Below, in pieces: positions 36,943 through 64,000 of a stretch of 64,000 nucleotides of DNA. The translations under genes were made by a program, and so were the position numbers. The stretch covers positions 74,408-138,407 of the forward strand of contig CAZISM010000002.1 in the NCBI GenBank assembly GCA_964541895.1, in the 5' to 3' direction. The notes beneath the pieces were generated by a model that saw nothing but the letters and a program-made list of their open reading frames with translations, was not told where the DNA came from and did not search any database. Every line of letters starts with the position of its first letter. The stretch's first letter is position 1. The stretch comes from an uncultured Cytophagia bacterium. Lineage in GTDB: Bacteria; Zhuqueibacterota; Zhuqueibacteria; Residuimicrobiales; Residuimicrobiaceae.

Positions 36943-38055
36943 ATGAATTCCAAAGAACGCGTACGACTGGCTTTGACGAGAAAGGCCGTTCCGGATCGCA
37001 TTCCCATCCAGTTTGATCTATGTCGCTCGCTGACGGAACATTTTTCCCAAACCCTGGGACTGGATCCGGGCTATACCTGGTCCTATTATGAGGATCTGAC
37101 CTATCGGATTTCTGCCAATGAAATACGGACCCGACTGGGCAGTGATGTGGTGGTGGTAGGCGGCGCCCTGGCGGCCGCTTTCAAGCCCATTCCGGTACAG
37201 GGTGATATAACTCTGAATGAATTCGGCATGAAGATGAAACCCACGCCGCTCTATGTCGAAGTGATCGAGTGTCCTTTGCAGCAAGTCTCCTCGGTGGAAC
37301 AGGTGCAGGCCTATGCTTTTCCCGATCCCCGCGCCCAAGGACGTTTTGACAATGCCCGCAAAGAGATCCAGCGATTCGGCGCGGACTATTTTATCATAGG
37401 CGATTGTGAACTGAGCATATTTGAACTGGCCTGGCATCTGACCGGCATGGAAAAATATATGATGGCTCTGGCCATGGAGGAGGAGTGGCTGGAGCTGTTG
37501 AACGACAAAGTCGAATATTGGACCACGCAACTGGCGCTGCAGCTGATCGAGCTGGGCGTGGATGCGATCTGGTTCGGTGAGGATCTGGGCACGCAGACCT
37601 CCACCTTGATTTCGCCGGGGATGTGGCGCAATCGCTTCAAGCCGCGCTATCAACGCATGTTCGATGCGTTGCGAAAGGTGAATCCGGACATCATTCTTAT
37701 CATGCATTCTGATGGTGCGGTGGCGCCGTTGCTGGATGATTTTATCGAAATGGGCGTGCAGGTATATAATCCGGTTCAGCCCAACGTCCCGGGTTCGGAT
37801 CCCGAAGAGTTGAAAAACACATACGGCCATTCCATCTCCTTTTTCGGCGGCATCGATCAGCAGCAGCTGTTGCCGCAGGGCAGGGTTGAGGATATCCGCA
37901 AAGAGATCAAATACCGCTGTCAGGTATTGGGTCGGGATGGCGGCTATCTCTTGGCGCCGGCGCACATCATTCAGGCGGATGTAAAGCCGGAAACGGTTTT
38001 GCTCATGATCGAAGCGGCGCAGGAATTCGGTTCGTATGATCGGATGTTATTCTGA
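36943..38055 (+). CDS. URO-D family protein (MtaA/MtvB-like methyltransferase-type), second paralog
   Basis: 370 aa. RBS AAAGGAGA upstream. The pattern ...DAIWFGEDLGTQTSTLISPGMWRNRFKPRYQRMFDALRKVNPDIILIMHSDGAV...GVQVYNPVQP...GGYLLAPAHIIQADV is typical of URO-D/MtaA-family TIM barrels. Confidence 0.65.
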   Translation: MNSKERVRLALTRKAVPDRIPIQFDLCRSLTEHFSQTLGLDPGYTWSYYEDLTYRISANEIRTRLGSDVVVVGGALAAAFKPIPVQGDITLNEFGMKMKPTPLYVEVIECPLQQVSSVEQVQAYAFPDPRAQGRFDNARKEIQRFGADYFIIGDCELSIFELAWHLTGMEKYMMALAMEEEWLELLNDKVEYWTTQLALQLIELGVDAIWFGEDLGTQTSTLISPGMWRNRFKPRYQRMFDALRKVNPDIILIMHSDGAVAPLLDDFIEMGVQVYNPVQPNVPGSDPEELKNTYGHSISFFGGIDQQQLLPQGRVEDIRKEIKYRCQVLGRDGGYLLAPAHIIQADVKPETVLLMIEAAQEFGSYDRMLF

Positions 38056-46654: not shown

Positions 46655-48028
46655 TCAATCGCCGCTCGATGTCGTAGAGGATGATGAGCGCTGGAGAAAG
46701 GAAAGCCGGGCCAATTCCTGCTCGGTGATGTATCGGTTCCAACTGAGCAGTTTCACCTTTTTATCATCGATGCGCTCGATATAGCTCCATAGGGCAGAGT
46801 CAAAATCTCCCCGTATGTTCCTCGCGCCGTTACTGTCTTCAATATAAATGTTGCCATTATCCAGAATCCTGGTCGCTCCCTGGGTTCTCGTCCTTAGCGA
46901 TATCGATGCCAAGAGCTGGGCATATGGCGTGGTAATGCTCCCATTCGAGAAATCGTAGACGTACTGTTGGTTGTGACCGTCAACAAATATTCCGTTGGCA
47001 TTCTTAAAGCGGGCTTCTATCACATTATTGCCGAAAACCGAAATCCGAGTGGAATCGAGAATATCGACATCATGTTGACGCAGCCAGGGGCCGTTCTGCC
47101 GCCATAAAATCTTATTGGTGGAAGGACGGTACAGCAAAACCAGATTTTGATTGCGCAAGCTTAGAAACAGATCGCCTTTTTTCCAGAAGCGAGCGTCCTG
47201 CAACACCGGCTGGATATCGTTCATGTGGCTGTAATCCAGATACGTTTCATTCATCGTTTCCGACGGATTGATAAAGAATACTCCGCGATCATATCCGTTC
47301 TCGATCAACAGCTCGAAAACGGACTTTTGGTATAGAATCCGGCCGTCCACAGGCGAGAGTTTGGTTATGACATCGTCGGTGATCTGATACTTGTCCGAGT
47401 TTTTTGTGGAAGCGTTGAACGCGCATACCCATATGTTGCCGTCGGCGTCCGGTTCGATCGTATGATGGCACATGGCCGTATTCGCCCAGACCAGTCGGGC
47501 GTGTCTGTCGATTTTGAATATGCCTGATGCCCGAAAAATCAGCGAGCCATCGTCCAGCAGCAGCGGAGCATAGCATTTGAAATCGGTGCGTGTGAAACGA
47601 TTCTGCGCGCCCTGGAACACATTGCTGATAATGGTCGTGTTGGCGATTTTAATTAATTGGTCAACGTCCGGCACCCAGCGATACACGGTGTTGCCGTCCC
47701 GGATGCGAATCAGTTTGACAATCGATTGATTCAGCGAATCGTCCCATGAGGGCAGCAGCAAATAATCTTTGCATACGGCGCTTGTATCGAAATAGACAAA
47801 TCCGTTTTGCCCTGAAAAAGTGTTGGGTTGTTCCAGTGGCTTTAGCGAGTCAGGATCTAAAAGGTTGGCCATGTGCATGGGCAGTTCCATTAAAAACAGA
47901 ACCACTTCCCTTGCCTGTCCCGTAATTCTGCTGCCGCCCTCCAGCACATGCCGTGCCACTCCCATCGAGAGGATCATGACAGCAAAAAGGAGCCAAAATC
48001 CGACTAATAGTATTCGTGCTTTGGTCAT
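46655..48028 (-). CDS. arylsulfotransferase (ASST)-like beta-propeller protein, membrane-anchored
   Basis: 457 aa. N-terminal TM helix. His-rich blocks MCHHTIEPDADGNIW and LRQHDVDILDSTRISVFGNN resemble the HHD/HxD active-site blocks of aryl-sulfate sulfotransferases. Confidence 0.5.
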   Translation of the reverse strand: MTKARILLVGFWLLFAVMILSMGVARHVLEGGSRITGQAREVVLFLMELPMHMANLLDPDSLKPLEQPNTFSGQNGFVYFDTSAVCKDYLLLPSWDDSLNQSIVKLIRIRDGNTVYRWVPDVDQLIKIANTTIISNVFQGAQNRFTRTDFKCYAPLLLDDGSLIFRASGIFKIDRHARLVWANTAMCHHTIEPDADGNIWVCAFNASTKNSDKYQITDDVITKLSPVDGRILYQKSVFELLIENGYDRGVFFINPSETMNETYLDYSHMNDIQPVLQDARFWKKGDLFLSLRNQNLVLLYRPSTNKILWRQNGPWLRQHDVDILDSTRISVFGNNVIEARFKNANGIFVDGHNQQYVYDFSNGSITTPYAQLLASISLRTRTQGATRILDNGNIYIEDSNGARNIRGDFDSALWSYIERIDDKKVKLLSWNRYITEQELARLSFLQRSSSSTTSSGD

Positions 48029-49669: not shown

Positions 49670-50335
49670 TCAACACCCTTCTTTTTTCTTCTTTCCCGTC
49701 GGCTTGCCGCCAGCCGACGAGCCGCCGCCGGGCAGCGCCAATTTGGGCATGGCCACTTGCGCTTGTTGTACCGCCTCGCCAGGACCACTCTGGGGCGAGC
49801 CGCCAAAATATTTGCTTACCTGTTTGCTTTTTTCGAATGCCTTTTGTTGTTCGGCTGAAGCGTTTTCGGCTATCCTGGGGAACAGAATTTTATCCTTCCA
49901 TTCCTCCAAACCCCCAAACAGGATATACACCGACTTGTAATCCTTGGCTTTGAGCAGGAACCAGGCCTGGGCGGCATGAATACCGCCTTCGGAGTAGATG
50001 ACGATTTTTTCGTTTCTCTGCAAGCCGGCGTTCAGCAGATTGGAAAGCACAATGTTTTCCGCCGTGGGGATATTGTACTCAGTGTATTCTTTTTCCGTGC
50101 GCAAATCGATCAGACGATAATCCGCTTTGTTCTGGATGATCCAGTCGGCCAGCTCTTCCACGGTCACATGATCGACTTTGCTGTCGACGATCATGGCCAG
50201 CTCCTGGGCGTCGATGGAGGTTCTGGCGCTGGAATAGGGATTGCCGGAGAACAGGGCCAGGACCGCCAGGATTAACAGAACGGCTGCGAGCTTTTGATTC
50301 AGGCTCAGATTCTTGATGCTATCCGTCAGCTTCAT
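49670..50335 (-). CDS. rhodanese-homology-domain protein, exported/membrane-anchored, catalytic Cys replaced by Ser, C-terminal -EGC
   Basis: 221 aa. N-terminal hydrophobic anchor LAAVLLILAVLALF. Rhodanese fold (YRLIDLRTEKEY...IPTAENIV...EKIVIYSEGGIHAAQAW...GGLEEWKD), but the active-site position (normally ...YC[RK]xGxR) reads YSEGGIH. Gly/Lys-rich tail ending KKKKEGC. Confidence 0.65.
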   Translation of the reverse strand: MKLTDSIKNLSLNQKLAAVLLILAVLALFSGNPYSSARTSIDAQELAMIVDSKVDHVTVEELADWIIQNKADYRLIDLRTEKEYTEYNIPTAENIVLSNLLNAGLQRNEKIVIYSEGGIHAAQAWFLLKAKDYKSVYILFGGLEEWKDKILFPRIAENASAEQQKAFEKSKQVSKYFGGSPQSGPGEAVQQAQVAMPKLALPGGGSSAGGKPTGKKKKEGC

Positions 50336-50943
50336 TGTTCCTCCGCCGATTTTTTCTCCGCCATTTTCTTTTCACCCCATTCGGCAGCGGCAAACGCCGC
50401 CAGGGCCATGATCGATACCAGAAAGACGATGAAACCGTAGGGCAGATTCAGCAATTGCGGCAATGTCACTTTGCCCAGCGAGGAAGATTCATAGAACGCT
50501 TCCACCAGGGGAAAGACTTCGCCGAAGGCAAGGATGCCGGCGACGATGCCGAGGAGGTAGACCCAGCCGTCATAGCGTCCGGTCGCCGCCGAAACGCAGG
50601 AGGTGCCCGGACAATAGCCGCCGATGACAAATCCCACGCCCAGCAACAGCCCGCCGACGATCTGGGGCCACAGGTAGGTCGGATTGATATAAACCAGCGA
50701 CAAATCGACAAAGCCGATGACGGAGAGATAATAGAGGCCGACCATGGCGGTGACGATGGCGGTGAACATTACTTTCAGCACGGCCATGTCGGTGAAATAA
50801 AACTGCGCCGCCAGTTTCCGGGCGCTGCCGAATCCGGCCCGTTCCAGAAAAAAACCGAAACCGATGCCGATCAGCACGGCGACGATGAGACTGACTTCAT
50901 CGTTAAAATAGCCGAATTTAAAATAGGGTGCGTTCATTGCCAT
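50332..50943 (-). CDS. YeeE/YedE family sulfur-compound transporter component (second half of a split pair)
   Basis: 203 aa, multi-TM. Hallmark GGYCPGTS motif. 4-nt overlap with the rhodanese-like gene, 10-nt overlap with the partner gene. Confidence 0.8.
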   Translation of the reverse strand: MAMNAPYFKFGYFNDEVSLIVAVLIGIGFGFFLERAGFGSARKLAAQFYFTDMAVLKVMFTAIVTAMVGLYYLSVIGFVDLSLVYINPTYLWPQIVGGLLLGVGFVIGGYCPGTSCVSAATGRYDGWVYLLGIVAGILAFGEVFPLVEAFYESSSLGKVTLPQLLNLPYGFIVFLVSIMALAAFAAAEWGEKKMAEKKSAEEQ

Positions 50944-51482
50944 TGTCTCCTTACCAGATATGCAAACGCATAACCGCCCGCAAACACGGACATCATAAAA
51001 GCCCAGCTGCCGAAATTAAGCAGCGCGCCGCCGGTGAGCGCCTGGCCGCTGGTGCAGCCCCGCGCCAGCTTGGCACCCACCGCCATGATCATGCCGCCGA
51101 GGAAGGCAAACATCAGCCGTTTGCCGCTGCTGATGCGCGGCCCTTTTTCGATCATTCCTTTGCTGCGATGCGCCAGTTTGCCGGAAATAAATCCGCCGAT
51201 GAACACGCCGAGCACTTCAAAAACCAGCCAATCCTTGAGCGGGTTGGTGGTGCCGTCACCGAGATATTCAGCGTAAAAGCTGTTCGAGTGGGCGTGTTCG
51301 GGGTTGGCCTTCTGCACACTATAAGCGACCATGGACGAGAAGGCCCCGGACGCTCCCAAACCTCTGCCCATGATGACAAAGGCGAGCAGGAGCACCAGCC
51401 CCAGCCCGATGCCGGCCAGATACGGATTCCAGTATGGTTGCGGAGCTTTGCCGGCCTCCGCAACATGTTGAGGTGAACTCAT
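50934..51482 (-). CDS. YeeE/YedE family sulfur-compound transporter component (first half of a split pair)
   Basis: 182 aa, multi-TM. Hallmark LARGCTSGQ motif. Confidence 0.8.
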   Translation of the reverse strand: MSSPQHVAEAGKAPQPYWNPYLAGIGLGLVLLLAFVIMGRGLGASGAFSSMVAYSVQKANPEHAHSNSFYAEYLGDGTTNPLKDWLVFEVLGVFIGGFISGKLAHRSKGMIEKGPRISSGKRLMFAFLGGMIMAVGAKLARGCTSGQALTGGALLNFGSWAFMMSVFAGGYAFAYLVRRQWQ

Positions 51483-51505
51483 AGTAATTCTCCCTTGGCA
51501 GGTTT

Positions 51506-52456
51506 CTATTTAACAAAGTGAGCGTTCACATAGTGACTGTATTGCCCGGCGCCAACGATGACAAAGCGCAGGATCAAGCCGCCGAGGATCACCAGCAGCG
51601 GCGCCACCGGCGTGTGTTTGACCAGGTGCCGGACGGACAGGGATTGGATGAGCAGGGGCACCAGAATGCCCATGAGGACGACAAAGACCCAGAACACGGC
51701 CGCATACGGCCCGTTCAACAAAAGTTTGGCGGATTGTATCTGCACTTCGGTGGAGCTGAGCAGGCCGATAAAAAACAGGGCAATGATCACCAGCTCGATG
51801 GAGAGAAACAGGTTGTCCGCTCTCGCCAGCATCTCGCTCTCCTTCCGGTCGCTGGCGATCATGTGCACCAGCGCAGAGGCGGTGGACAGTCCGGACACCA
51901 GAAAGAGAAGGCCCAGAATGGCGCTGTTCCATAAGGGGCGGGCGCCCAGAGCGCTGAGCAGAATGCCGGTGTAAATGCCGAGCATGATGCCGAGCACAAT
52001 GTTGGTCCAGCCGATGAGCGGTCGGATACCTCGCAGCGTGGAGAATTTTTCCGACCAGCTTTTCAGGACCGGCAACGGCGTTGCCAGCCATACCGGCACG
52101 TGCAGCATGAAATTGGCGGCAAGGGCAGGATACACCAGCAGCAGGATCCAGGCCCCCCAGGACATGGGCGATTTGATTTCGAACGTCGTGTACAATCGCC
52201 AGACGTAGAGCTTGTGTTCCAGATCCAGGAACAGGGCCAGCATGCCGAGGCTGAGAAGCACCAGGCCGATCAGGGGAATGCGATAGCAGATGCATTGGTA
52301 ATCCGCATCGCGTCCCTTGAGGAAAAAATATCCGGATACGATCATCATGCCGGCCACCAGGCCGCCCAGAAAAAGATAGAGCGGGATCTCCCAGCCCCAG
52401 ACATGGACGACCGGATCGATCATCTCGTTATGACGGGTTGACGTGAGTTCTGTCAT
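51506..52456 (-). CDS. NrfD/PsrC-family integral membrane subunit of a molybdopterin oxidoreductase (polysulfide-reductase type)
   Basis: 316 aa, about 8 TM helices. Conserved N-terminal WGWEIPLYLFLGGLVAG block of the NrfD/PsrC family. Confidence 0.8.
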   Translation of the reverse strand: MTELTSTRHNEMIDPVVHVWGWEIPLYLFLGGLVAGMMIVSGYFFLKGRDADYQCICYRIPLIGLVLLSLGMLALFLDLEHKLYVWRLYTTFEIKSPMSWGAWILLLVYPALAANFMLHVPVWLATPLPVLKSWSEKFSTLRGIRPLIGWTNIVLGIMLGIYTGILLSALGARPLWNSAILGLLFLVSGLSTASALVHMIASDRKESEMLARADNLFLSIELVIIALFFIGLLSSTEVQIQSAKLLLNGPYAAVFWVFVVLMGILVPLLIQSLSVRHLVKHTPVAPLLVILGGLILRFVIVGAGQYSHYVNAHFVK

Positions 52457-52468
52457 CTTGGCCTCGTA

Positions 52469-53026
52469 TTAGATCAGGTAGAATATGTGCGGTTGCGTTC
52501 CGGCCTCGCCGATGAGCGCGTGATGGTTGCGTTCGGCGAGCAGCTTGCTCACGGTGCTGTTGGCGTCCTCCACATCGCCGAAATACATACAATGGGTGGG
52601 ACACACAGAGACGCAGGCCGGGTCCAATCCCTGTTCGACGCGGTGGATGCAAAAGGTGCACTTGTCGGCGTAGCCGCCCGGATGGATAAAACGGGCGTCG
52701 TAGGGACAGGAAGCCAGACAGGCCTTGCAGCCGATGCAAAGCTCATGATGCACCAGCACCACACCACCGCGCTCATGAATGTGACTGGCGCCGGTGGGAC
52801 AGCAGTAGACGCAGGGCGGGTTGTCGCACTGGTTACACCGTTCAGAGCGGATCTCCATGTGCACCTTGGGGAATTTGCCCTTTGCTTCCGTGGTGATCCA
52901 GTCGCGATTAAACCCTTCCGGCACGCGATTTTCGGTCTTGCAGGCGACGACGCAGTCCATGCAGCCGACGCATTTCAACGTATCTATTACCATTGCGTAT
53001 CGCGCCATATCACGCCTCCAGCTCAA
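52469..53026 (-). CDS. 4Fe-4S ferredoxin-type electron-transfer subunit (PsrB/PhsB/NrfC-like)
   Basis: 185 aa with four Cys clusters (CVGCMDCVVAC, CNQCDNPPCVYCCP, CIGCKACLASCP, CTFCIHR...CVSVCP). Confidence 0.85.
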   Translation of the reverse strand: MSWRRDMARYAMVIDTLKCVGCMDCVVACKTENRVPEGFNRDWITTEAKGKFPKVHMEIRSERCNQCDNPPCVYCCPTGASHIHERGGVVLVHHELCIGCKACLASCPYDARFIHPGGYADKCTFCIHRVEQGLDPACVSVCPTHCMYFGDVEDANSTVSKLLAERNHHALIGEAGTQPHIFYLI

Positions 53027-55205
53027 TCGTCACAAAATTGACATTCATCGCCGTGCCTCCCATAAGCGGATCGACCGTATAGTCCGTGATGAGCTGCGCG
53101 TCGCTCGCGCCCTTGTTGTAGGCGAACTTTAACATTTTCGCATTGTGACCAAAGCCGTGGATCATATACACACAATCGGTGCGAATGCGCTCGGTGGCCT
53201 TGACCTTTACTCTGTTGCTGACAACGCCGTCCTGGTTTTTCAGGCGGATGTGATCGCCGCTTTTCAGGCCGTAGCGGTTGGCGATGTCCTGATTGATCCA
53301 CACTTCGTTTTCGTCGACCATATCCATCAAGATCCGGTTCGATTGGGTGCGGCTGAAGGAATGGACCGGCGTCCGGCCGTACAACAGGCGAAAATATCCA
53401 GGTGGCGGCTGCGGCGGTTGCTTGTATTTGGGCACAGGATCGAATCCCGCTTCTGCCAGCTGCAGCGAGTAGAACTCGATCTTTCCGGAGGGCGTGGGAA
53501 AGAGGTCGGCGACGCCTTCGCTGAAATAGATCGGCTGTTTCTCGCCGAGGATGATGCCCTCCTGTTTCAATTGCTCATAGCTCAAGCCGGCGGCATCCAG
53601 CCGCTGCTTGAAATAGTCTTCGATCGTCTCCCAGGGAAAATAGTGACCGAGGCCGAGTTTGTCGGCCAGATTTTTGGCGATCCACCAGTTGGGCTTTTGA
53701 TCGTGAGGCGGTTTCACCGCCGGCTGTCGCAGGGCGACAAACGGCTCGCGGAACCATTCCACATTCAGATCGTCGTGTCGTTCCAGGTACACGGACTCGG
53801 GCAGGATCACGTCCGCCCAGCCGGCTATCTCTGCAGGTATGACATCAATCACCACCAGCAGATCGAGATTTTTGATGGCTTGAAGGGTCTCTTCTTCATT
53901 GGGCAGGGCGTGAATCAGATTGGTGGCATACACCATCCACCCTTTGATGGGATAGGGCTTGCCGGTGATCGTAGCCTCCCGGATACCGGTCGTGATGGTC
54001 TCGTGGGCAAAAGGATATTTTTTGTTTGGATTATCGACCTTGCCCCTGTTCGAATGCGGGTACTCGGGATAAGGATAGGCGGGGACATCCATGCTCACGG
54101 GATAGTAAAAGCCGCCTTTGACGCCCCAGTTGCCCATGAGCGCATTGAGCAGGGCGATGGCCCGCGATCTTTGGGTGTCGTCGCCGTACCAGGTGACGTG
54201 TCGACCGGGATGGATGAGCGTGGCCGGTTTGTACCTGGCCATTTCTCTGGCCGTGGCGCGGATCAATTCCGGCTCGATGCCGGTTTCCGGATAGGCCCAT
54301 TCCGGGGTGTAGGGGAGGATTTCGTTTCTGAAATTTTCAAAGCCAAAGCCGTACTTGTCGACGTATTCCCTGTTGTAGAGGTTTTCCGTGACCAGGACAT
54401 TCATCCACGCCAGCAGCAGGGCCAAATCGGCACCGGGTTTGATGGGCAGATAGTATTTGGCTTTGCCGGCGGCTACCGACAGGCGCGGATCCACGACGAT
54501 AAGGCTGGCTTTATTTTCAAGCGCATGACTGAACTCCTGCACCTGCGTGTTGTGCATGTTCTCCCCGAGGTGCGAGCCGATCAGCACCAGACATTGGGCG
54601 TTCCGGATGTCGGTTCGTTCCGGAGAGCTCACATCCTCGCCAAAGGTCAGCTTGAAACCCACGTCCCGCGGACCCCGGCATTGGGCGAAGGAGGGCGCTG
54701 AAATATTGGCAGAGCCATAGGCTTTGAAGGTGTGTTTAAGAAAGTTGCCGCCGATGCCGTGGCTAAAGAGCGCCATGGCTTCCGGGCCATGCTCAGCCTT
54801 GATTTTTATCATTTTATCGGCGATAAAAGTGAGGGCTTCTTCCCAGGAGACTGCGGTCCACTGCTCTTCGCCGCGCACAGATTTGCGCAGCAGCGGTGTT
54901 TTCAGGCGATCGGGATCGAAATGGGCGCCGACGCCGCCGGTACCGCGCGGACAGAGCCGGCCGCGGCTGAGCGGGTCGAGCGGATTGCCCTCCACTTTCC
55001 ACAAGGTGCCGTCCTGAACGTAGGCGATGGCGCCGCATTTCCAGAAGCAGATGTCACAAAACGTCGGAATTTTTTGCAGCCCTTTGGCCGGCTTTTCCGT
55101 GGTCGACGTCTCAGCCGCTGTTCCCAGAGATCCGCTTGCCGCGGCGGCTGCCGCCACCGAAACGCCACCAATTTTTAAGAACTTGCGCCTTGAAATGGTA
55201 TCCAT
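53010..55205 (-). CDS. molybdopterin (bis-MGD) oxidoreductase catalytic subunit with Tat signal, PsrA/PhsA (polysulfide/thiosulfate reductase)-type
   Basis: ORF 53010..55259. The internal ATG at 55203-55205 is preceded by GGTGGAG and starts MDTISRRKFLKIGGVSVAAAAAASG (twin-arginine). N-terminal FeS motif C-x2-C-x3-C...C (FCDICFWKCGAIAY...RGRLCPRGTG) as in PsrA/PhsA. Large MopB domains. 17-nt overlap with the FeS subunit gene. Confidence 0.8.
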   Translation of the reverse strand: MDTISRRKFLKIGGVSVAAAAAASGSLGTAAETSTTEKPAKGLQKIPTFCDICFWKCGAIAYVQDGTLWKVEGNPLDPLSRGRLCPRGTGGVGAHFDPDRLKTPLLRKSVRGEEQWTAVSWEEALTFIADKMIKIKAEHGPEAMALFSHGIGGNFLKHTFKAYGSANISAPSFAQCRGPRDVGFKLTFGEDVSSPERTDIRNAQCLVLIGSHLGENMHNTQVQEFSHALENKASLIVVDPRLSVAAGKAKYYLPIKPGADLALLLAWMNVLVTENLYNREYVDKYGFGFENFRNEILPYTPEWAYPETGIEPELIRATAREMARYKPATLIHPGRHVTWYGDDTQRSRAIALLNALMGNWGVKGGFYYPVSMDVPAYPYPEYPHSNRGKVDNPNKKYPFAHETITTGIREATITGKPYPIKGWMVYATNLIHALPNEEETLQAIKNLDLLVVIDVIPAEIAGWADVILPESVYLERHDDLNVEWFREPFVALRQPAVKPPHDQKPNWWIAKNLADKLGLGHYFPWETIEDYFKQRLDAAGLSYEQLKQEGIILGEKQPIYFSEGVADLFPTPSGKIEFYSLQLAEAGFDPVPKYKQPPQPPPGYFRLLYGRTPVHSFSRTQSNRILMDMVDENEVWINQDIANRYGLKSGDHIRLKNQDGVVSNRVKVKATERIRTDCVYMIHGFGHNAKMLKFAYNKGASDAQLITDYTVDPLMGGTAMNVNFVTIELEA

Positions 55206-55284
55206 GAATGCTCCACCATTGTGATACATCGCGAAAAGTCCATGTTTCCAAAAAGACACTAAAATTAATTATACCTGCACCCAT

Positions 55285-55998
55285 TCACAAGCGCAAAGTG
55301 CAAAAACCGTCGAGGCCTTCATCACATTGCTGGCCCAGTTTCTTATAGTCATCAGGACTGTTCATGTTAAAAAACAGTTCATCTTTATAGAACGGCAGAA
55401 GATGAGCTTCGAAAATCTCTGTTTCGACAGCTGCAAACAGGTTGCGGAAAGAGCGAAAGCCGTGTTGCGGCGGAGCGGCGAGAATCTTATCGATGGCGGG
55501 CAAGGCCCCTTTGTGATAACGCCCGGGCAACGGCTGCAAAAAACCGGCTGCGCGGCAGATGACGATGGATCTTTCGGAAGGCAAAGCGGCGATATGTGCC
55601 AGCATCTCCCTGCTCATGCGCGGCAGGTCGCAGGAGATGACCAGATTGGCATCGGTCCTGGAATGCAAGAGAGCGGCATGGAGGCCCGCCAGCGGACCTG
55701 CATCCTGGTACACGTCTGCCACCTTGGGCAGCTGCAGAAAAGCCATTTCCTCTACAGAGTTGGTGCTGAGAATGACTTTAGAGAATAGGGATGACATCAA
55801 ATCGACAATGATCTCGATGACCGTCTTGTCGCCGATTTTAAGAAGGGATTTGTTGGTGCCCATGCGGCTGTTTTTGCCGCCGCTGAGAACGATGCCAGTG
55901 ATGTCAGAGTGCACAGTTGATGACGGTGTGAATTGGGCTGGTGACCAGAGTCGGTTTCGATTCCACGCTGCCGAATCCTTTTTTATGGTTAGATGCAT
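55285..55998 (-). CDS. mobA: molybdenum cofactor guanylyltransferase
   Basis: The core aligns with E. coli MobA: ITGIVLSGGKNSRMG (cf. ITGVVLAGGKARRMG), AGPLAGL (cf. PGPLAGM), ISCDLPRMS (cf. CPCDTPYIP). The ORF has a 30-aa N-terminal extension, so the true start may be internal. Confidence 0.75.
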   Translation of the reverse strand: MHLTIKKDSAAWNRNRLWSPAQFTPSSTVHSDITGIVLSGGKNSRMGTNKSLLKIGDKTVIEIIVDLMSSLFSKVILSTNSVEEMAFLQLPKVADVYQDAGPLAGLHAALLHSRTDANLVISCDLPRMSREMLAHIAALPSERSIVICRAAGFLQPLPGRYHKGALPAIDKILAAPPQHGFRSFRNLFAAVETEIFEAHLLPFYKDELFFNMNSPDDYKKLGQQCDEGLDGFCTLRL

Positions 55999-56341: not shown

Positions 56342-58258
56342 TCATCCTCTACGATCAGCGGTTGTTCTCTGTGCGCTCGGAAACAGGTTGCTGTTGGTAT
56401 GCGGCAAAAAGAGCGCCCCTGTGTACTGATTCATATAGCCGGGTTTGACCGAGAGATCTATATAAGTCATCTTTCTGGCCAACTGCAACTGCTTTTCTCT
56501 GTATTCCTGTGAGACCAGTACCATAAACGCGCCGCTCAGCGATGAATTGCCGATGTAGGCGAACCTGGCCCTGTCCAGGTCCGGCAGCAGGCCGATACAG
56601 ATGGCTTTTTCAATATCAAGAAAGCGACCAAAGCCGCCGGCAATATAGACCTGCTGCAGGTCACTGAAATTCAGGCCGGTCTGCTCCAGCATGACCGCAA
56701 TGGCGGAAAAAATAGCCGCCTTGGCGCGCAGAATGTTTTCGATATCCGCTTCGCTGATGGTGATGGCCTGGCCGATGCCGCTCTGCTCTTCCGCTGCGAT
56801 GACATAGACTGCCTGACGGCCCTGAATCCGGATCGCCGGCGAAGGTTTGCTGCGATTCAGTTTGCCGGCGGCGTCGATCCAGCCGGACATGAACAGTTCA
56901 GCCAGCAGGGAGATCATGCCGGAGCCGCAAATGCCCCTGGGCAATACATGCCCGATGGTCTGATAGGCGGCCACGCCGGTTTCCCTGTCCACTTCCACTT
57001 TTTCTATGGCGCCCAGCGAGGCGCGCATGCCGAATTCGATGCCGCCGCCTTCAAAGGCCGGTCCGGCCGAACAAGCGCAGGTCATGAGAAAATCGCTGTT
57101 GCCGATCACCATTTCGCCGTTGGTGCCGATATCGATGAACAGATTGATGCCTTCCGCATCAGCGGCCATATCGGTGCAAAGCAGGCCGGAGGTGATGTCA
57201 CCGCCCACATAGCTGCCGACGGCCGGTGCCATGTATACCCATGAATTTGGATTTATTTCCAGGCCAATTTCCCTGGAGGTGAAATAATGCGCCTCCAACA
57301 GCGTCGGTGTGTACGGATCCAGGCGGAGATATTCCGGATTCAAGCCCAGCAACAGGTGGATCATGGTGGTGTTGCCGGCTACCACGGCGTTGCTGATCTC
57401 TTTGGGATCCACACCGTGTGCCCGGCACACCTGCTCCACCAGCGCATTGATGGTTTTCAGCACCCGCCGCTGCAGCTCCTGCAACCGTGCCGGTGTGCGC
57501 GCATAATTGATGCGACTGATAACGTCCAGCCCGCACGCCACCTGATCGTTATAGGCCGTGCGCGTGGCGATGATGCGCGCCAACGGCAGAAACACCAGCT
57601 GCACGGCGACGGTGGTGGTGCCGACGTCAATGGCGATGCCATAGTGCCGCGTCGTCTGATTGCCGGGCTCTACGTCGACGATATAATAGCGCTGCGATGA
57701 ACGTACCAGCGTAATGGTAACCTGGCCATCCTGTTGTCGTAACACTTGGGCGATTTTTTGGATCACCGGCAGGGCATAGTGAAACTCCACCTTGCCCCAC
57801 TCTTTTTGCACCGTGCGCGTCAATCGCTCCAGATCGGAGAGGCCGTCTTCCAATTGCGGAGGCGGCACCTGTACCAGCCATTTCAGCGTCAGCGGATCGT
57901 ACTGCCACTCTTTGGGAAAGAGCTCCTTTCGAATCAGCAGCTGCGAATCGGTTTCGTCGATAAACTGGCCGCCGTCCCGACTCGCCTGCGCCGGAATCTC
58001 GATAACAACGGGTTTTTCAAGCACACGGGTCTTGCAGGCCAGCACATGGCCGTCGCTCAACGCCGAGCCGGACAATATGCCCTGGCTGTTGGAATCCACC
58101 TCCCCGCTTTTGACATGCACAATGCAGTTGCCGCAGGTGCCTTTGCCGCCGCAGGAGAGATCCACCTCGATGTCGGCCAGACGCATGGCATCGAGAAGCT
58201 CTGTGCCGTCTGTTACGCTGATAGTTTTGCCTAAAGGCAGAAACGTGATCACCGGCAT
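56342..58258 (-). CDS. reductive activator of the corrinoid iron-sulfur protein (RACo/AcsV-type: N-terminal plant-type 2Fe-2S ferredoxin plus ASKHA ATPase domain)
   Basis: 638 aa. N-terminus PVITFLPLGKTISVTDGTELLDAMRLADIEVDLSCGGKGTCGNCIV (2Fe-2S ferredoxin CGG.G.CG.C), then a long ASKHA/DUF4445-type body. 1-nt gap to acsC. Confidence 0.8.
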   Translation of the reverse strand: MPVITFLPLGKTISVTDGTELLDAMRLADIEVDLSCGGKGTCGNCIVHVKSGEVDSNSQGILSGSALSDGHVLACKTRVLEKPVVIEIPAQASRDGGQFIDETDSQLLIRKELFPKEWQYDPLTLKWLVQVPPPQLEDGLSDLERLTRTVQKEWGKVEFHYALPVIQKIAQVLRQQDGQVTITLVRSSQRYYIVDVEPGNQTTRHYGIAIDVGTTTVAVQLVFLPLARIIATRTAYNDQVACGLDVISRINYARTPARLQELQRRVLKTINALVEQVCRAHGVDPKEISNAVVAGNTTMIHLLLGLNPEYLRLDPYTPTLLEAHYFTSREIGLEINPNSWVYMAPAVGSYVGGDITSGLLCTDMAADAEGINLFIDIGTNGEMVIGNSDFLMTCACSAGPAFEGGGIEFGMRASLGAIEKVEVDRETGVAAYQTIGHVLPRGICGSGMISLLAELFMSGWIDAAGKLNRSKPSPAIRIQGRQAVYVIAAEEQSGIGQAITISEADIENILRAKAAIFSAIAVMLEQTGLNFSDLQQVYIAGGFGRFLDIEKAICIGLLPDLDRARFAYIGNSSLSGAFMVLVSQEYREKQLQLARKMTYIDLSVKPGYMNQYTGALFLPHTNSNLFPSAQRTTADRRG

Positions 58259-58259
58259 G

Positions 58260-59597
58260 CTAATTCAATCCTGCACGAATATAGCTTTCCAGGTCCGCCA
58301 CCTCTTGTGGTCCCACCAGCACTTTCCATCCCGGCAGGTTCTCTTCCAACTCGCCGCTGATCTGCGCCACATAACCGGGGATGATGATTTTTCTCGAGGT
58401 GACCTGTTCATTCAGACCTATCTCTTTGGCGAATTTGCCGATCACGGCGCCGGAGAATTTGCCCGCGGCCCAGGCGGTCAATACACTCATGCCTTCGCAC
58501 TCGGGCACCAGCAGCCAGGCATTGACCCCGCAGTTTTCAATCTCGCCGGAGACGATGAAATAGGTCAGAGAGAAATTGGTGGTGACAAAGACCGGCGAAT
58601 CCGGTTTGGGCTCGCCGATGGCGTACAGCTTGGGCTCTACCTGAATAGGCTTTTGTGGATCGGTGAACAGATTGAGCCGAAGGGTCAGCAGCGTCGCCAG
58701 CTGAGCCGTATCGAAATGGGACAGTACGCAGATGCCGCCGTATTTGCAGATTTCGTTCAGGGCTGATACGGTGTTTTCCAGCAGATCGCCGGCCGGAACG
58801 AAATGGATGCCGGGATATCCCAACGGTTTAAAGGCATCTTTGATGGCGGCACGGCGGGCGATGGAATTGATCTGGAACCGTTCTGCCAACGACATGGTCG
58901 GTAATTGCAGAATCAGACGATCAAAACCCGACTCTTTGAGGCGACTGGTCAGAGCGACCAGACCGTTCAGATCCGGCGCCGTGACCACCAAGGCGTGTTC
59001 CTGCTCTTTGGCCGCTTGCACCAGTTTATCCGCGCTGGCTTCATCTGCCTGGTAGAGCACGCTGCGCGAGTCCGGCACGGCGCAGCCGGCCGCGATCAGC
59101 GCTTCTGCATCCGGGCTGCGCAGTATCATCGGCTTTTGTACGGTCGCCCAGCATTTTTTGACCAGGTCGATATAGCGCTGCGCATCGCCGCTTGTTTGCG
59201 TGACCGCCACCATGTCGATGCGAAGGGTTTCGCCGACGCGCTCCAGAACATAATTCTTGACGTTGTCCAGCACGGTATCGATGGTCTGCGCCGGATCCGT
59301 GTCGTTGATGTTGACGGCGATGGCCGTTTTGTTGACAAATGTTTTTTCGTGCCGATACAGCACCGATTCGTCGCCCAGCTTGACGGATTTGTCCCTGCCC
59401 AGTTCGATGATTTTAACCGGCGGTTCCGCCGCTGCGCCCAGGACCTGCTTCGCTTCTTCGGAAGCGTAGGGACAGGCCGAAAGCTCGGCGCGTTTGGCAG
59501 CCAGCTTCATGGCAAAAGCGAGACAGGTGTTGGAGCCGCACTCTTTACAATTGGTTTTCGGCAACAGTTTTTGTATTTGCAGGCCGGTAAGTGCCAT
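58260..59597 (-). CDS. acsC: corrinoid iron-sulfur protein large subunit
   Basis: 445 aa, collinear with Moorella AcsC: MALTGLQIQKLLPKTNCKECGSNTCLAFAMKLAA...SACPY (cf. MPLTGLEIYKQLPKKNCGECGTPTCLAFAMNLAS...DSCPY), TNFSLTY, IIPGYVA...GWKVLVGPQEVADL. Confidence 0.85.
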   Translation of the reverse strand: MALTGLQIQKLLPKTNCKECGSNTCLAFAMKLAAKRAELSACPYASEEAKQVLGAAAEPPVKIIELGRDKSVKLGDESVLYRHEKTFVNKTAIAVNINDTDPAQTIDTVLDNVKNYVLERVGETLRIDMVAVTQTSGDAQRYIDLVKKCWATVQKPMILRSPDAEALIAAGCAVPDSRSVLYQADEASADKLVQAAKEQEHALVVTAPDLNGLVALTSRLKESGFDRLILQLPTMSLAERFQINSIARRAAIKDAFKPLGYPGIHFVPAGDLLENTVSALNEICKYGGICVLSHFDTAQLATLLTLRLNLFTDPQKPIQVEPKLYAIGEPKPDSPVFVTTNFSLTYFIVSGEIENCGVNAWLLVPECEGMSVLTAWAAGKFSGAVIGKFAKEIGLNEQVTSRKIIIPGYVAQISGELEENLPGWKVLVGPQEVADLESYIRAGLN

Positions 59598-59656: not shown

Positions 59657-62600
59657 TTAGGCCGATTTGGTTTGATCCATCAAATCGGCAATGGTTTTCT
59701 TTATGGCTGCTACGGCGCGCGGATTGTACATGATCAGAATATCGGCGCCGGCGTACAGAAACGAAACCGATGTGGTCAGTTCCCACAACGCGGCGCGATC
59801 CGCCAATTCGCCCCAGGCCGGAAACTCGGCGGCCGTTGCTTTGGTCTCTTTAATCTTGGCGCATTCCGGTCCGGGCGAAACAATCATCGGGCCGGCCAGC
59901 ATGCGGTCGCCGTTGAGCGCAGTGAGGCGGATACGTTCCATGACCGAATAGGTGTACTCGATGCCATAGCCGGTGGCGCCGGTCATGGGATCCATGATGA
60001 TCTGCTCCGGCTTGACGTCCATGTTGGTGAGCAGGATGTTCATCTGCTTGGCGATATTGACGTCGATGGGGCTCTGCGAAATCAGGACGTGGCCGTACGC
60101 CAGCGCCGCACCGGCGATGGTGCGGTAATTGTCCTGTTCCACCCAGTTCAACAGCAGCCGTTCGCCGCGGCAGGCCTGGGCGACGGCTTTAAGTACTTGA
60201 TTGTTTTTATCGAAATGGCTGTGGCCGGTGATGATCAGCGGCACCGGCACCGCGGCCAGCACCTGTTTGACCAGGTCCACGGCCTGCTCCGCGGTGCGGT
60301 CGCCCTTTTCCGGATGGGTGCCGTCCAGACGAACGCTGATCAGATCGGCGCCGTATTTTTCCACGCACACCCTGGCCATCTCGGCCGGCTGATGCAACAG
60401 GTCTCCATACACTTCGCGCAAGACCTGCGGATATTTTTCGCTCACCACGTCAAAGACCTCCATGGCCACCAGAGGTCGATACGGCATCTCGCCTTCCCAG
60501 AGATGGAACGGCATGCAGGTTTCGCCGCCCACGATGCAGGTTTTGCCGCGCGTGCCGCCCTCTGCGGTGGTGGCGCCCAGTTGGACTTGCCACACCGGCA
60601 CTTCACATTTCTCTTTTCTGATTTCAAAAGCCTGCACGCGACGGAGCCGTTCTGCAGCGCTGGGTGCCGGCGGCTTTGCCACGATCACCGGGGCAGCAGC
60701 GGCCATCACCGGCTCGGCCGCCGGTTCCGATTTTATGCCCAGAAACCTGGCATTGAGGGTGCCGACGATTTCGCCGACTATCTCCCGGGTAATCGATTCT
60801 TTTAATTCGCGCGCCAGTTCCTGTTTCAAGTGTTCCAGTTGTTCGCGTGTCACTTGTCGTTCCTCCGCAGCAGGTGTGCTTGTGGCCGGTTGTTCCGGAA
60901 CGTGCGCCGCTTTCGTCGGTTCTTCTGTGGCCGCGGCCGGTTGCGGCACGCCGGCCGATTTGCTGTAATTGCTCATGTCCTCCATGGCCAAAGCCGGATG
61001 GCCGTTTTTCTCAAGCTCCTGGCGGACCTGGATCGCATCAATGGCGATCGTTTCGTCGATGATTTTGTCCAGCAGATCCGGCGCATTCTGTTCGTTGAAT
61101 CGTTTCTGCAAATCGTCGGCCAGCAGCGTCTTTAACTCTTTGGTCATCCACACCAGCCGCTTGTGTCCGCCCTCGGCAAAGAGAAATTTTTTCGAAGTCA
61201 AAAAGACTTTGCCGCAGCCCATGAACCCCGGCGTTTGCAAGCCACCACCGACGTTTCCGGCCAGGGAGGAAAAGGTCATGCCCACCGGCGTTTCGCCCTG
61301 GTATTCGCGGTTGACCACCATGACGCCGTTGCATTCCGGCAGATAGGCGCAGATCACTTCAAAGCAGCCGCAACTGGTCATGGGATTGTTCATGATCGAA
61401 TAAGCGGAAAAGCTCTGGATGGTTTTGTGACTGTTGATATAGACGTAATCGTCCACGCCCTGCCAGACGCCGCGTACCGGATCCATGCATTCGCTTTTCT
61501 TGATGGGCTGGTTAGGCCCGGTTTCGTCGATTTCGAACGCCGCCTTGCCGTCCAGCCAGTTATAGGCGCCGCACAGACCCAGACGCTCCGGGGTGATGAC
61601 GCAGACGTGGTTGGGGGCAAAGGATTGGCAGAGCAGACAGGAGTAAAACGTGTCCACTGCATCGTCGGTCATGGATTCCAGACGTCGGTTGCGTTCGTCG
61701 TAAACTTTGCGGGCGATCGCCAGCCGCTCCCGCACCAGCGCTTCATCGGTAATCATGGTGACTTGCACTTTGTCGACGATAGCGGGATAGTCGGACAGAA
61801 ATTTGGCATGAATGATTTCGCCATAGTGACGCAGACGCAGGCCGCGGCTAAAGCCCTGTTTGGAGACGCGCGTCCAGACGATGTCGCGCTGTCCCATATG
61901 CCAGATGCCTTCGGCGCCGTTGATGAGGTGATGGATCTGTCGCTCCAGGATAGGCTCGAAATCCGGCTGCATCTTGCGGCCGGCCACTTCCACCCAGATA
62001 GCCAGTGGCAGCACATCGCCTTCCTGGATGGCGTCTATGTCCGGGCCGATGATGTTGATCTCGCCGTCGTTGATCTCGTCCAGCTCTTTCGAGGTCACAA
62101 ACTCAAAGGCCATGGTTTTGTTGCCGCCGAATTCGACGTGGGCGTCGGTGCGGCGGATTCGTTCGCCTTCAAAGGCCGGGCCGTATGAAACCGGAATCGG
62201 CACGTGGGTGATTTTTATTTTACAGCCGCGCACCTCCAGCGCCTTGTCCACCATGACCTCGTGCGCCACGTTGGCCACCACGTGTTCGTAGGTGCAGACG
62301 CCGGTGGGCAGGATTTCCGGAATATCCGTATCGGCGATGACCGGGAAACCGTAATTGATGGCGCCGGCGGCGGCCGCATATTTTTCCGCCGACACTTGGC
62401 CCAACGCGAGCACAAAGGCAAAAATGCGATTCTTGTTGTATTTCAGGTTTTTGGCAAAATCACCAGGCTTGACCCCGCCAAAGGAGAGGGCCGCACGATT
62501 GGCAAAACCCAGGGCATACACCAGAGCGGAGACGTCCTTGCCGAACGGAACCAATCGGGTTTCCCAACCCAATTGCACGCCTTCTTCGGCCAACTGTTCG

Positions 62601-63148
62601 GCAAACTGTTTGCCGTTCAGGCTGCCGCCCATGAACACATAAAGATTTTTCTCCTGCAGTTCGCGCGCTATCTTGACGGCAATGGCGTTGGTCGGCGCGG
62701 CGCCGGTGATGGCGGCGAATCCGGGTGCGGTGCCGTCCACGAATTCAATGCCGCGCTCGCGCATGATGAGATCGCTGGCAGCACCCAACCAGATCCCGTC
62801 CACCGGATGCGGACCGATCACGTATTTGCACGCTTCAATAATTTCGCAGGCAAACAGCGCGGCCACACCGGCGTCGAGCGTGTTGCCCAGGTAAGGCAGC
62901 CAAACGTTTTCCGACGGCCGTTCCGGCAAATAGGATTTGGCTGTTTTCAGAATAGCGGCGAGGTCCCTGAGGGTTTCAGCTTTTTCGCCGGTAAAGGAAT
63001 AGATGATGGGAAGGTAATAGGCGGTATCCGGAAATCCAACTTTGCAGGATTCACCTTTGGCCTGAATGGCGGCGTGCAGTTTCTCTTCCGCTCTGGCCAC
63101 CCACTCGACCGCGCCGTCGATGGCGCTGCTGCAGATGATCTTAGACAT
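59657..63148 (-). CDS. acsB: acetyl-CoA synthase (AcsB) fused in-frame to the CoFeSP small subunit (AcsD) via an Ala/Pro/Glu-rich linker
   Basis: Single uninterrupted 1163-aa ORF. Residues 1-730 align with Moorella AcsB (VGFPDTAYYLPIIYSF, A-cluster motif SCGCFE, GKVFLTSKKFLFAEGG). About 110 aa of linker (...PAAEPVMAAAAPVIVAKPPAPSAAER...). The last 320 aa align with Moorella AcsD (GGTRGKTCIVGGETCMPFHLWEGE, EKYGADLISVRLDG, IDVNIAKQMNILL, GYGIEYTYSVMERIRLTAL). Start ATG overlaps the cooS stop (ATGTCTAA). Confidence 0.85.
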   Translation of the reverse strand: MSKIICSSAIDGAVEWVARAEEKLHAAIQAKGESCKVGFPDTAYYLPIIYSFTGEKAETLRDLAAILKTAKSYLPERPSENVWLPYLGNTLDAGVAALFACEIIEACKYVIGPHPVDGIWLGAASDLIMRERGIEFVDGTAPGFAAITGAAPTNAIAVKIARELQEKNLYVFMGGSLNGKQFAEQLAEEGVQLGWETRLVPFGKDVSALVYALGFANRAALSFGGVKPGDFAKNLKYNKNRIFAFVLALGQVSAEKYAAAAGAINYGFPVIADTDIPEILPTGVCTYEHVVANVAHEVMVDKALEVRGCKIKITHVPIPVSYGPAFEGERIRRTDAHVEFGGNKTMAFEFVTSKELDEINDGEINIIGPDIDAIQEGDVLPLAIWVEVAGRKMQPDFEPILERQIHHLINGAEGIWHMGQRDIVWTRVSKQGFSRGLRLRHYGEIIHAKFLSDYPAIVDKVQVTMITDEALVRERLAIARKVYDERNRRLESMTDDAVDTFYSCLLCQSFAPNHVCVITPERLGLCGAYNWLDGKAAFEIDETGPNQPIKKSECMDPVRGVWQGVDDYVYINSHKTIQSFSAYSIMNNPMTSCGCFEVICAYLPECNGVMVVNREYQGETPVGMTFSSLAGNVGGGLQTPGFMGCGKVFLTSKKFLFAEGGHKRLVWMTKELKTLLADDLQKRFNEQNAPDLLDKIIDETIAIDAIQVRQELEKNGHPALAMEDMSNYSKSAGVPQPAAATEEPTKAAHVPEQPATSTPAAEERQVTREQLEHLKQELARELKESITREIVGEIVGTLNARFLGIKSEPAAEPVMAAAAPVIVAKPPAPSAAERLRRVQAFEIRKEKCEVPVWQVQLGATTAEGGTRGKTCIVGGETCMPFHLWEGEMPYRPLVAMEVFDVVSEKYPQVLREVYGDLLHQPAEMARVCVEKYGADLISVRLDGTHPEKGDRTAEQAVDLVKQVLAAVPVPLIITGHSHFDKNNQVLKAVAQACRGERLLLNWVEQDNYRTIAGAALAYGHVLISQSPIDVNIAKQMNILLTNMDVKPEQIIMDPMTGATGYGIEYTYSVMERIRLTALNGDRMLAGPMIVSPGPECAKIKETKATAAEFPAWGELADRAALWELTTSVSFLYAGADILIMYNPRAVAAIKKTIADLMDQTKSA

Positions 63149-64000
63149 CCAGTTCTCTCCTGTCTTTCATATCGTACAATTTCCGCTCCGTCTTTTTGTT
63201 GATACCTAATTTTTCTCTGGATCGATCCAGCAATTCCATGATTTTGTCGAACGCTTCATGTGGATCCTGGCAAACGTGGAAGGAGCCGCCAAACAAGTTG
63301 GTGGCCTCTTCATTAAGAAACCGGGTCACGTTGTCAGAGCCGGAAATATGGAAGGGATGGCCGAGGATGACATCCACGCCGGAGGCGACGAAATAGCAGC
63401 CGATGGCTATGGCTTTTTCACTCATCCACTCCGGTGCCACGCCCACGGCGGGAATCTGCGACAGGTCGTCGCCCAGTCCGCCTTCCAGCACCACCTCGGT
63501 AGCAGCTTCGAGAATACGCGCATTGTCAACGCAGCTGCCCATGTGCAGAATGGGCGGGATGCCCACCGCTTCACACACCTCGCGCAACCCCTGCCCGGCC
63601 TGCTCGAGGGCGGTTTCAGGCAGCAGCATGCCTTCCTTGGCCGAAGCGATGGCGGCGCAGCCGGTTTTTAATACCAGGACATTGTTTTCGATCAGTTTTT
63701 TAGTAAGCGTGTTGACATAGTATTCCAGCTGTTCCTTGGGATTGCTGCAGCCGACAATGCCCACCAACCCTTTGATGCGGCCCTGGATGATGGCGTCATT
63801 CAACGGCCGGAAGGAGGCCCGAAAGCGGCCGCCCAGCATATACTTGATGGCATCGACGCTAAAGCCGGCCACCAGGGGCTTTACGCCGGCGGGAATGGCT
63901 ACTTTTTTCGGATCACGATTTTTAAAATTATCTACAGCCCGTTTGACAATGGCTTTGGCGGAGAGCAGCGCGTCATCTTCGTCGAACAGATGCTGTACCG
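63141..64000 (-). CDS. cooS: anaerobic carbon-monoxide dehydrogenase catalytic subunit, C-terminal part (5' end outside the window)
   Basis: Manual minus-strand translation from the window edge gives ...VQHLFDEDDALLSAKAIVKRAVDNFKNRDPKKVAIPAGVKPLVAGFSVDAIKYMLGGRF... with no stop codon. It continues into the listed ORF (GIVGCSNPKEQ, GMLLPETALEQAG, IPPILHMGSCVDNARI, IAIGCYFVASGVDVILG), the conserved C-terminal region of Ni-CODH CooS/AcsA. Confidence 0.8.
   Translation of the reverse strand, partial: VQHLFDEDDALLSAKAIVKRAVDNFKNRDPKKVAIPAGVKPLVAGFSVDAIKYMLGGRFRASFRPLNDAIIQGRIKGLVGIVGCSNPKEQLEYYVNTLTKKLIENNVLVLKTGCAAIASAKEGMLLPETALEQAGQGLREVCEAVGIPPILHMGSCVDNARILEAATEVVLEGGLGDDLSQIPAVGVAPEWMSEKAIAIGCYFVASGVDVILGHPFHISGSDNVTRFLNEEATNLFGGSFHVCQDPHEAFDKIMELLDRSREKLGINKKTERKLYDMKDRRELDV

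Follow-up and report, generated by a model that had tools for sequence, protein, structure and literature searches.

Characterised bacterial gene clusters keep acsB, the gene for acetyl-CoA synthase (ACS), apart from acsD, which encodes the small subunit of the corrinoid iron-sulfur protein (CoFeSP), and the AcsD protein pairs with AcsC to form the CoFeSP heterodimer. Does a 64,000-nucleotide stretch of DNA from an uncultured Cytophagia bacterium (contig CAZISM010000002.1 of assembly GCA_964541895.1, positions 74,408 to 138,407; hereafter the window) really carry the two genes as one, and what would such a union do? An earlier note on this DNA had described an in-frame acsB::acsD fusion, set it against the separate genes of characterised clusters and named an assembly artefact as the explanation to exclude. 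Our analysis indicates that the gene is probably a genuine functional fusion within a module for the carbonyl branch of the Wood-Ljungdahl pathway (acsA, acsB::acsD, acsC and RACo), and that it most likely tethers CoFeSP to ACS.

The fused reading frame and its two halves

The listing of open reading frames (ORFs) placed acsB::acsD at 59657..63148 on the minus strand, as a single frame of 1163 amino acids with an ATG start and zero internal stops, which bears out the earlier description of an ORF without stop or frameshift. Four Pfam domains were found along its product, all scoring far above their gathering scores: CODH_A_N (residues 21-110), CdhC (318-471), ACS_CODH_B_C (483-725) and CdhD (855-1140). 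The NCBIfam models agreed with the identities proposed for the two parts. The N-terminal one matched the AcsB equivalog NF040764 almost from end to end (residues 10-725 against positions 1-704 of 705; 1032 bits, cut-off 800), and the C-terminal one matched the CdhD/AcsD subfamily NF003376 (residues 841-1157 against positions 3-312 of 313; 380 bits, cut-off 280) as well as PF03599 (143 bits, cut-off 24.8).

Each half carried the features expected of it. The A1 domain with which AcsB docks onto carbon monoxide dehydrogenase (CODH) is present (PF18537 at residues 21-110), and the CODH gene acsA adjoins the fusion. The Cys-Gly-Cys-Phe motif of the A-cluster, mentioned in the earlier note, was located at C593-G594-C595-F596; it is invariant in the relatives (26- and 30-sequence alignments A1 and A2), and so are C504, C507, C516 and C526, which we take to be the [4Fe-4S] ligands from established knowledge of Moorella ACS. 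The AcsD half, to which the conserved N-terminal strand segment 829-845 also belongs, was collinear from end to end with the solved chains 4DJD_D (residues 2-318 of 323, E = 4.9e-93) and 2H9A_B (residues 4-305 of 310, E = 1.2e-71). As judged from the sequence, both halves are complete: an AcsB with all its A-cluster cysteines and a whole AcsD, in frame. Unlike the Moorella protein, this AcsD half fits NF003376 and not NF040759, the model of the Moorella-type WLP_AcsD group, for which it stayed below threshold (253 bits, cut-off 430); by these profile scores it is a member of another AcsD subfamily.

An assembly artefact, a frameshift, a sequencing error joining two neighbours or a pseudogene could in principle produce such a frame. 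We scanned one genome per species, found at least 584 stretches encoding relatives and retained the best 80. In all 80 of these best loci the match to the fusion was one high-scoring segment pair in one frame, spanning AcsB, the linker and AcsD; coverage ran from residue 1 to about 1158 in 75 of them, and the remaining five end at a contig edge. These independent assemblies, from different studies and phyla, are thus continuous and single-frame through the junction. Congruently, the best 120 of 8000 database relatives were all full-length fused proteins of 1148-1211 amino acids with the same four precomputed Pfam domains, which answers the question of whether AcsB and AcsD domains co-occur in one protein elsewhere. 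Moreover, a fused gene of 97% identity, with matching genes downstream, was present on two independent metagenome contigs, and a conserved helix sits inside the linker. Taken together, these observations reduce the chance of an artefact to a negligible one.

The fusion also appears to be the only source of AcsD in its surroundings. Neither tblastn over the 64 kb of the window nor Pfam scans of its other large ORFs detected a second acsD, in agreement with the statement that this cluster has no separate copy, and the related loci showed no free acsD up to 10 kb from the fusion. In every related locus reaching far enough, acsC was the next gene downstream (tblastn with six query proteins); its product is the expected partner of the AcsD half. 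Given a genuine fusion of two complete halves, with acsC directly next and a separate acsD missing, the natural reading is that the A-cluster enzyme is physically tethered to the corrinoid protein that donates its methyl group.

The linker, its helix and the proposed leash

Column identity in the alignment of relatives was about 0.7-0.95 over the catalytic halves, and it fell to 0.2-0.4, with many indels, over residues 724-840. The earlier note had described this region as an Ala/Pro/Glu-rich linker. Its composition was confirmed (22 Ala, 18 Glu and 13 Pro among the 130 residues from 726 to 855, which include the first residues of AcsD), but the linker is not a plain spacer, since it contains a conserved amphipathic helix. 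Directly upstream of the barrel, this helix (766-804) is set within disorder (726-765 and 805-828). Column conservation in the first disordered part was 0.2-0.4 and the gap fraction 0.16-0.33, and a local conservation peak within the linker was observed at 781-800. Among 71 proteins, positions 771, 774, 778, 782, 786, 790, 791, 794, 795, 798, 802 and 803 were strongly hydrophobic in 89-100%, and position 766, the first hydrophobic one, in 86%; K775 (86%), L798 (99%) and G804 (90%) were conserved as well. Past the linker, the conserved N-terminal residues of AcsD begin with P829, A831, R834 and F841. An AlphaFold2 model of the full-length fusion, built from a 30-sequence alignment and used for its secondary structure only (mean predicted local distance difference test score, pLDDT, of 53.8; predicted template-modelling score of 0.36), gave one long helix at 768-802, of low confidence and with unstructured flanks; in the first disordered part the pLDDT was below 50 and only a four-residue helix (727-730) was drawn. 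A Pfam scan of the linker alone returned nothing meaningful. The conserved helix inside the linker is a previously unremarked element.

Five related loci lack the helix (L036, L039, L042, L048 and L050, from four Syntrophales/Syntrophaceae metagenome-assembled genomes (MAGs) and one 'delta proteobacterium'). In these proteins a Pro-rich stretch of 67-81 residues connects the conserved anchors of AcsB and AcsD. Since the helix-less relatives keep this stretch, the tether is universal and the helix an add-on. Their fusions show only two lineage-specific substitutions, and no segment was lost together with the helix in AcsA, AcsC, RACo, CooC or the MesB-like protein encoded near the module in relatives. 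A gene for a PF02574 homocysteine-methyltransferase domain, frequent near the fusion in other relatives, was not found within 10 kb in these five loci.

Long disordered linkers are accessible to proteases, and the gene might therefore encode a polyprotein or have a dual output, in which cleavage of the linker after translation, or an internal start, releases free AcsD and leaves separate subunits as in Moorella. We consider this very unlikely. No conserved internal Met or start was found in residues 805-845, and the hypervariable disordered parts on either side of the helix show no conserved motif resembling a cleavage site. Furthermore, an in-frame junction kept across many phyla, together with purifying selection on the helix, is hard to square with a linker that is discarded.

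If the polypeptide instead acts as a tether, AcsC would pair with the AcsD moiety and make up CoFeSP in the usual way; the corrinoid protein would thereby be held on a covalent leash at the C-terminal (A3) domain of ACS, itself placed on the CODH dimer. Such a leash would fix a 1:1 stoichiometry of ACS and CoFeSP and favour their co-assembly. It would also keep the methyl donor within about 100-150 Å and give it an effective concentration of some tenths of a millimolar (order-of-magnitude values, estimated from about 64 disordered residues and a 58-Å helix), while the corrinoid domain would stay free to reach the methyl-loading enzyme and RACo. The conserved helix may be an extra interaction element, either for self-association or for docking of a partner. 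The earlier note had suggested channelling as a possible purpose of the fusion. That part of its interpretation is not supported: because the linker is largely disordered and varies in length between lineages, from roughly 50 to about 170 residues, the leash would raise the local concentration without forming a channel, and its kinetic advantage is putative.

Several points weigh against the tether. Well-studied acetogens function with separate subunits and thus do without a tether. An intact 127-kDa polypeptide is a prediction from the gene, and so far any kinetic benefit of the fusion is only putative. The AlphaFold model, with a mean pLDDT of 54, is uninformative on the mutual placement of the halves because of its poor overall quality. 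Finally, no segment that co-varies with the helix was detected in AcsA, AcsC, RACo, CooC or the fusion itself.

The role of the helix invites a comparison with the archaeal acetyl-CoA decarbonylase/synthase complex (ACDS, CdhABCDE). There, CdhC and CdhD tether the parts through their disordered termini, and a Leu-zipper helix in the disordered N-terminal region of CdhD oligomerises CoFeSP and scaffolds the ACDS supercomplex; this region was said not to be conserved in bacterial AcsD (preprint 10.64898/2026.07.07.736967). The fused bacterial family does show an equivalent region, within the fusion. In both systems ACS and CoFeSP are joined through disordered regions and a helix precedes the CdhD/AcsD barrel. 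In the fused family, unlike in ACDS, the link is covalent and the ACS is a bacterial three-domain AcsB, bound to a bacterial-type CODH; its helix has no detectable sequence similarity to the archaeal one and follows a 4.0-residue instead of a heptad periodicity.

We also weighed whether the linker helix is the bacterial counterpart of the archaeal CdhD coiled coil and would oligomerise the fused enzyme, giving a supercomplex like ACDS. Both proteins have, in the same order, disorder, a helix, an Ala/Pro-rich segment and the TIM barrel; alignments to long archaeal-type CdhD profiles begin at residue ~800; and the failure to find a co-varying docking site in the cluster partners is compatible with self-association. 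Nevertheless, when the linker profile was aligned with residues 43-88 of M. acetivorans CdhD, hhalign returned a probability of 0.2% over one aligned column, in a comparison of low sensitivity owing to the single-sequence template. The family-averaged hydrophobic periodicity of the linker helix had a power of 2.25 at 4.0 residues and 0.03-0.14 at 3.5-3.67, against 0.15 and 0.9-1.2, respectively, for the archaeal helix. Both results leave homology between the two helices unsupported. The helix is, in addition, dispensable in the five relatives described above, mostly Syntrophales. We hold a counterpart of the CdhD coiled coil to be quite doubtful, and just as doubtful the broader proposal that the helix is a self-association or docking module assembling (AcsA)2(AcsB::AcsD)2(AcsC)2 units into a higher-order bacterial supercomplex resembling ACDS. 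If that proposal were true, bacteria would have solved independently what archaea solve by means of the CdhD coiled coil, and the fused family would be a type of acetyl-CoA synthase machine of its own, one that spreads horizontally in uncultured fermenters and syntrophs.

The gene cluster in the window and in related loci

Table 1. Features of the acsB::acsD module, with positions in the window; residues are those of the fused protein
Feature	Position	Strand	Evidence
acsA (Ni-CODH), C-terminal 286 codons; the gene continues past the window end	63141..64000	-	PF03063, TIGR01702; frame open to the edge
acsB::acsD fusion gene, 1163 aa plus stop	59657..63148	-	ORF listing; Pfam and NCBIfam; single-frame relatives
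AcsB half, residues 1-725, three-domain bacterial acetyl-CoA synthase	60974..63148	-	NF040764; PF18537, PF03598, PF19436
A-cluster [4Fe-4S] cysteine ligands C504, C507, C516, C526 (presumed from Moorella ACS)	61571..61639	-	Translation; alignments A1 and A2
Cys593-Gly594-Cys595-Phe596, Ni-binding motif of the A-cluster	61361..61372	-	Translation; alignments A1 and A2
Linker part 1, residues 726-765, variable, indel-rich, Ala/Pro/Glu/Thr-rich, disordered	60854..60973	-	Conservation; AlphaFold
Linker part 2, residues 766-804, conserved amphipathic helix ending ..EIV..II.TLs.kFLG	60737..60853	-	71 proteins; AlphaFold
Linker part 3, residues 805-828, variable, Ala/Pro-rich, disordered	60665..60736	-	Low conservation, indels; pLDDT below 50
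AcsD half, residues 829-1163 plus stop, TIM-barrel CoFeSP small subunit	59657..60664	-	NF003376; PF03599; 4DJD_D, 2H9A_B
acsC, CoFeSP large subunit: Fe-S domain, TIM barrel, corrinoid domain	58260..59597	-	NF003195 (501 bits, cut-off 306); PF04060, PF03599
RACo, ATP-dependent reductive activator of CoFeSP	56342..58258	-	Fer2, RACo_linker, Raco_middle, RACo_C_ter

Gene order across the 80 loci was very uniform: two cooC-type ATPase genes, acsA, the fusion, acsC and RACo. The end of the window cuts acsA, which is full-length at the equivalent position in relatives. Its stop overlaps the start of the fusion by 8 nt (ATGTCTAA), and because of this overlap coupled translation of the two genes is suggested. 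Pfam scans of the large ORFs of the window did not reveal an AcsE-type gene (PF00809), and in L083 and L084, the two relatives whose genes carry Pfam labels, none lay 10 kb or less from the fusion.

Two further genes accompany the module in relatives (L001:4349-6366 and the equivalent positions in about 60 of the 80 loci) and are known from these alone, because in the window the corresponding positions lie past the right-hand edge. One is the stand-alone PF02574 gene, which is often upstream. The other, the usual upstream gene, encodes a protein of ~355 amino acids without a Pfam family. The Joint Genome Institute (JGI) labels it COG0620, 'methionine synthase II', and its residues H232-x-C234, D253 and C328 are invariant. 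The Zn ligands of Dehalococcoides MesB are found at 214, 216, 235 and 311; this 'core' methionine synthase, the gene of which clusters with Wood-Ljungdahl genes, is predicted to obtain methyl groups from CoFeSP (PMC7857596). Given the JGI name and the matching spacing of the Zn ligands, the ~355-aa neighbour resolves to this described family and fits a MesB-like protein. A search of the profile of this 358-aa neighbour against solved structures returned spurious repeat matches only.

The closest characterised systems are the CODH/ACS and CoFeSP of Moorella thermoacetica and Carboxydothermus hydrogenoformans. Like these, the module in the window has all the catalytic parts, and they are collinear (AcsB, AcsD, AcsC, RACo and the adjoining CODH); from this correspondence it should carry out the same chemistry as the Moorella-type CODH/ACS. 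It differs in that AcsB and AcsD form one polypeptide, with a linker of ~100 residues and a conserved helix in it, in the missing PF00809 gene (over the ranges given above), and in the MesB-like and PF02574 genes that accompany the fused module in relatives.

In two long contigs a DUF3786 protein follows RACo (L083:16878-17477 and L084:16756-17379), while the window has only a MobA-like gene at that position; in the 97%-identical contig L081 an ORF of ~74 amino acids precedes the MobA-like gene. Directly downstream of RACo, positions 49670-55998 of the minus strand encode this MobA-like transferase, a 749-aa molybdopterin oxidoreductase with a twin-arginine translocation (TAT) signal, a 4Fe-4S protein, an NrfD-type membrane subunit, two half-size sulfur-transport proteins of the YeeE/YedE type and a rhodanese. 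From its gene content this looks like an operon of the polysulfide/thiosulfate/tetrathionate-reductase type.

Much of the remaining window (1-48000) is of another kind. It encodes sulfatases (18204-19781, 25778-27598 and 32546-34183), glycoside hydrolases of the GH97, GH36, GH127, GH116 and apiosidase-like types, an L-arabinose isomerase and sugar transporters, and an arylsulfotransferase-like protein is encoded at 46655-48028. Because the rest of the window consists of sulfatases, glycoside hydrolases and sugar transporters, the source organism looks like a polysaccharide-degrading anaerobe, with the gene profile of a degrader of sulfated polysaccharides. Among the sugar-utilisation genes are two for URO-D family proteins, at 10611-11846 and 36943-38055 of the plus strand; this family includes corrinoid-dependent methyltransferases.

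Spread of the fusion and its meaning

The fusion is not unusual by comparison with databases, where the architecture, with its four Pfam domains, is the standard form of a large family of many phyla. Fused relatives carry the labels Bacteroidota, KSB1, Zhuqueibacterota, Lentisphaerota/Victivallales, Kiritimatiellia, Verrucomicrobiota, Planctomycetota, Spirochaetota (including termite-gut Treponema MAGs), Bacillota, Syntrophales, Desulfomonilia, Acidobacteriota, Synergistota, Omnitrophota and Ignavibacteriae. Judging by these database relatives, the fusion is a common variant among uncultured anaerobes of many phyla and not a one-off. The earlier note had asked whether the fused form is common and already described in this lineage. 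Common it is; a description of an AcsB::AcsD fusion was not found in the literature searched, although an earlier mention is possible (for example in the evolutionary survey of Adam et al. 2018). We are apparently dealing with a widespread variant of a known enzyme system that is present in databases and undescribed in the literature searched.

Fused proteins share 66-84% identity with the window protein across phyla, a value to which binning errors could add since the phylum labels come from MAGs, and unfused AcsB representatives share 30-57%. On clustering at 50%, the fused family collapsed essentially to one representative (P0121). The contrast between these identities suggests that the whole module has spread horizontally. 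Besides this family, two divergent fused lineages were identified: P0122, with 49% identity and a linker of about 170 residues, and P0130, whose linker has roughly 50 residues at most. In rough neighbour-joining trees of each half the three fused lineages fall apart, among unfused proteins. Fusion or fission may thus have happened more than once, a reading that is tentative because the trees carry no support values.

Other joined forms exist in the same system. A fusion of methylene-H4folate reductase (MTHFR) with AcsD has been annotated in Desulfurivibrio alkaliphilus (PMC5016858). As in the fusion studied here, AcsD is joined to another Wood-Ljungdahl enzyme, so that it is a recurrent fusion partner. 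Four proteins of ~525 amino acids that consist of AcsD plus an extension (P0232, P0245, P0247 and P0254) possibly correspond to the Desulfurivibrio fusion. They differ from AcsB::AcsD in having AcsD at the N-terminus and another partner as the C-terminal extension, in which no Pfam match was found. The AcsA::AcsB protein P0133 (1375 aa), a database sequence only, likewise fuses interacting subunits, but those of CODH and ACS and not of ACS and CoFeSP. Because AcsA::AcsB and MTHFR/AcsD fusions exist, the fusion of interacting partners can be said to recur in this system. Considered together, P0133, P0136, P0129, P0232 and P0266 comprise CODH::ACS, a pyridine-nucleotide-disulfide oxidoreductase fused to AcsB, and AcsD with a C-terminal extension of 200-340 amino acids.

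Some candidates were discarded. P0145 and P0231, which resembled a stand-alone 'long AcsD', are fragments starting inside the C-terminus of AcsB. P0126 and P0138 are not fusions but AcsB proteins split by an intein; the large insertion, intein-like and with features of a homing endonuclease, lies exactly inside their conserved A-cluster motif, between FYSC(T/S)LC and QSFAP(N/D)H.

The pattern of spread raises the alternative that the fusion is a near-neutral 'Rosetta-stone' one, which keeps obligate partners co-inherited and co-expressed in a mobile module and brings no kinetic benefit. The gap in identity between fused and unfused proteins, with the module-wide horizontal transfer that it suggests, the separate positions of the three divergent fused lineages in the rough trees, the range of linker lengths and the other fusions of this system all speak in its favour. 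On the other hand, the conserved amphipathic helix implies selection beyond mere connection. We judge this alternative unlikely; it overlaps with the explanation by stoichiometry and co-assembly and does not exclude it. A functional tether between ACS and CoFeSP is accordingly the reading that we retain.

What does the fusion mean for the organisms that carry it? Databases hold the fused architecture, yet the names given to it by NCBI and other databases cover the AcsB half only (ACS beta, or alpha/beta, subunit), and no model of the whole architecture was found in the curated resources Pfam and NCBIfam. Because this naming covers only the ACS subunit, the AcsD half is invisible by name. Reconstructions that look for a separate acsD or cdhD may wrongly score the carbonyl branch of the Wood-Ljungdahl pathway as incomplete. 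The groups affected would be uncultured ones (KSB1, Lentisphaerota, Aminicenantes, Planctomycetota, termite-gut spirochaetes and others), for which the presence of the branch matters to carbon-cycle inference.

For the enzyme itself, a natural covalent pair of ACS and CoFeSP would be independent evidence that the partners act as a persistent unit, and the fused protein could be a handy construct with which to trap the methyl-transfer state for structural study, or one to use in engineering. The helix in the linker is a candidate functional element, one that parallels but does not copy the archaeal tethering through disordered regions. At the level of the family, the high identity across phyla points to horizontal movement of a compact acetyl-CoA synthase module.

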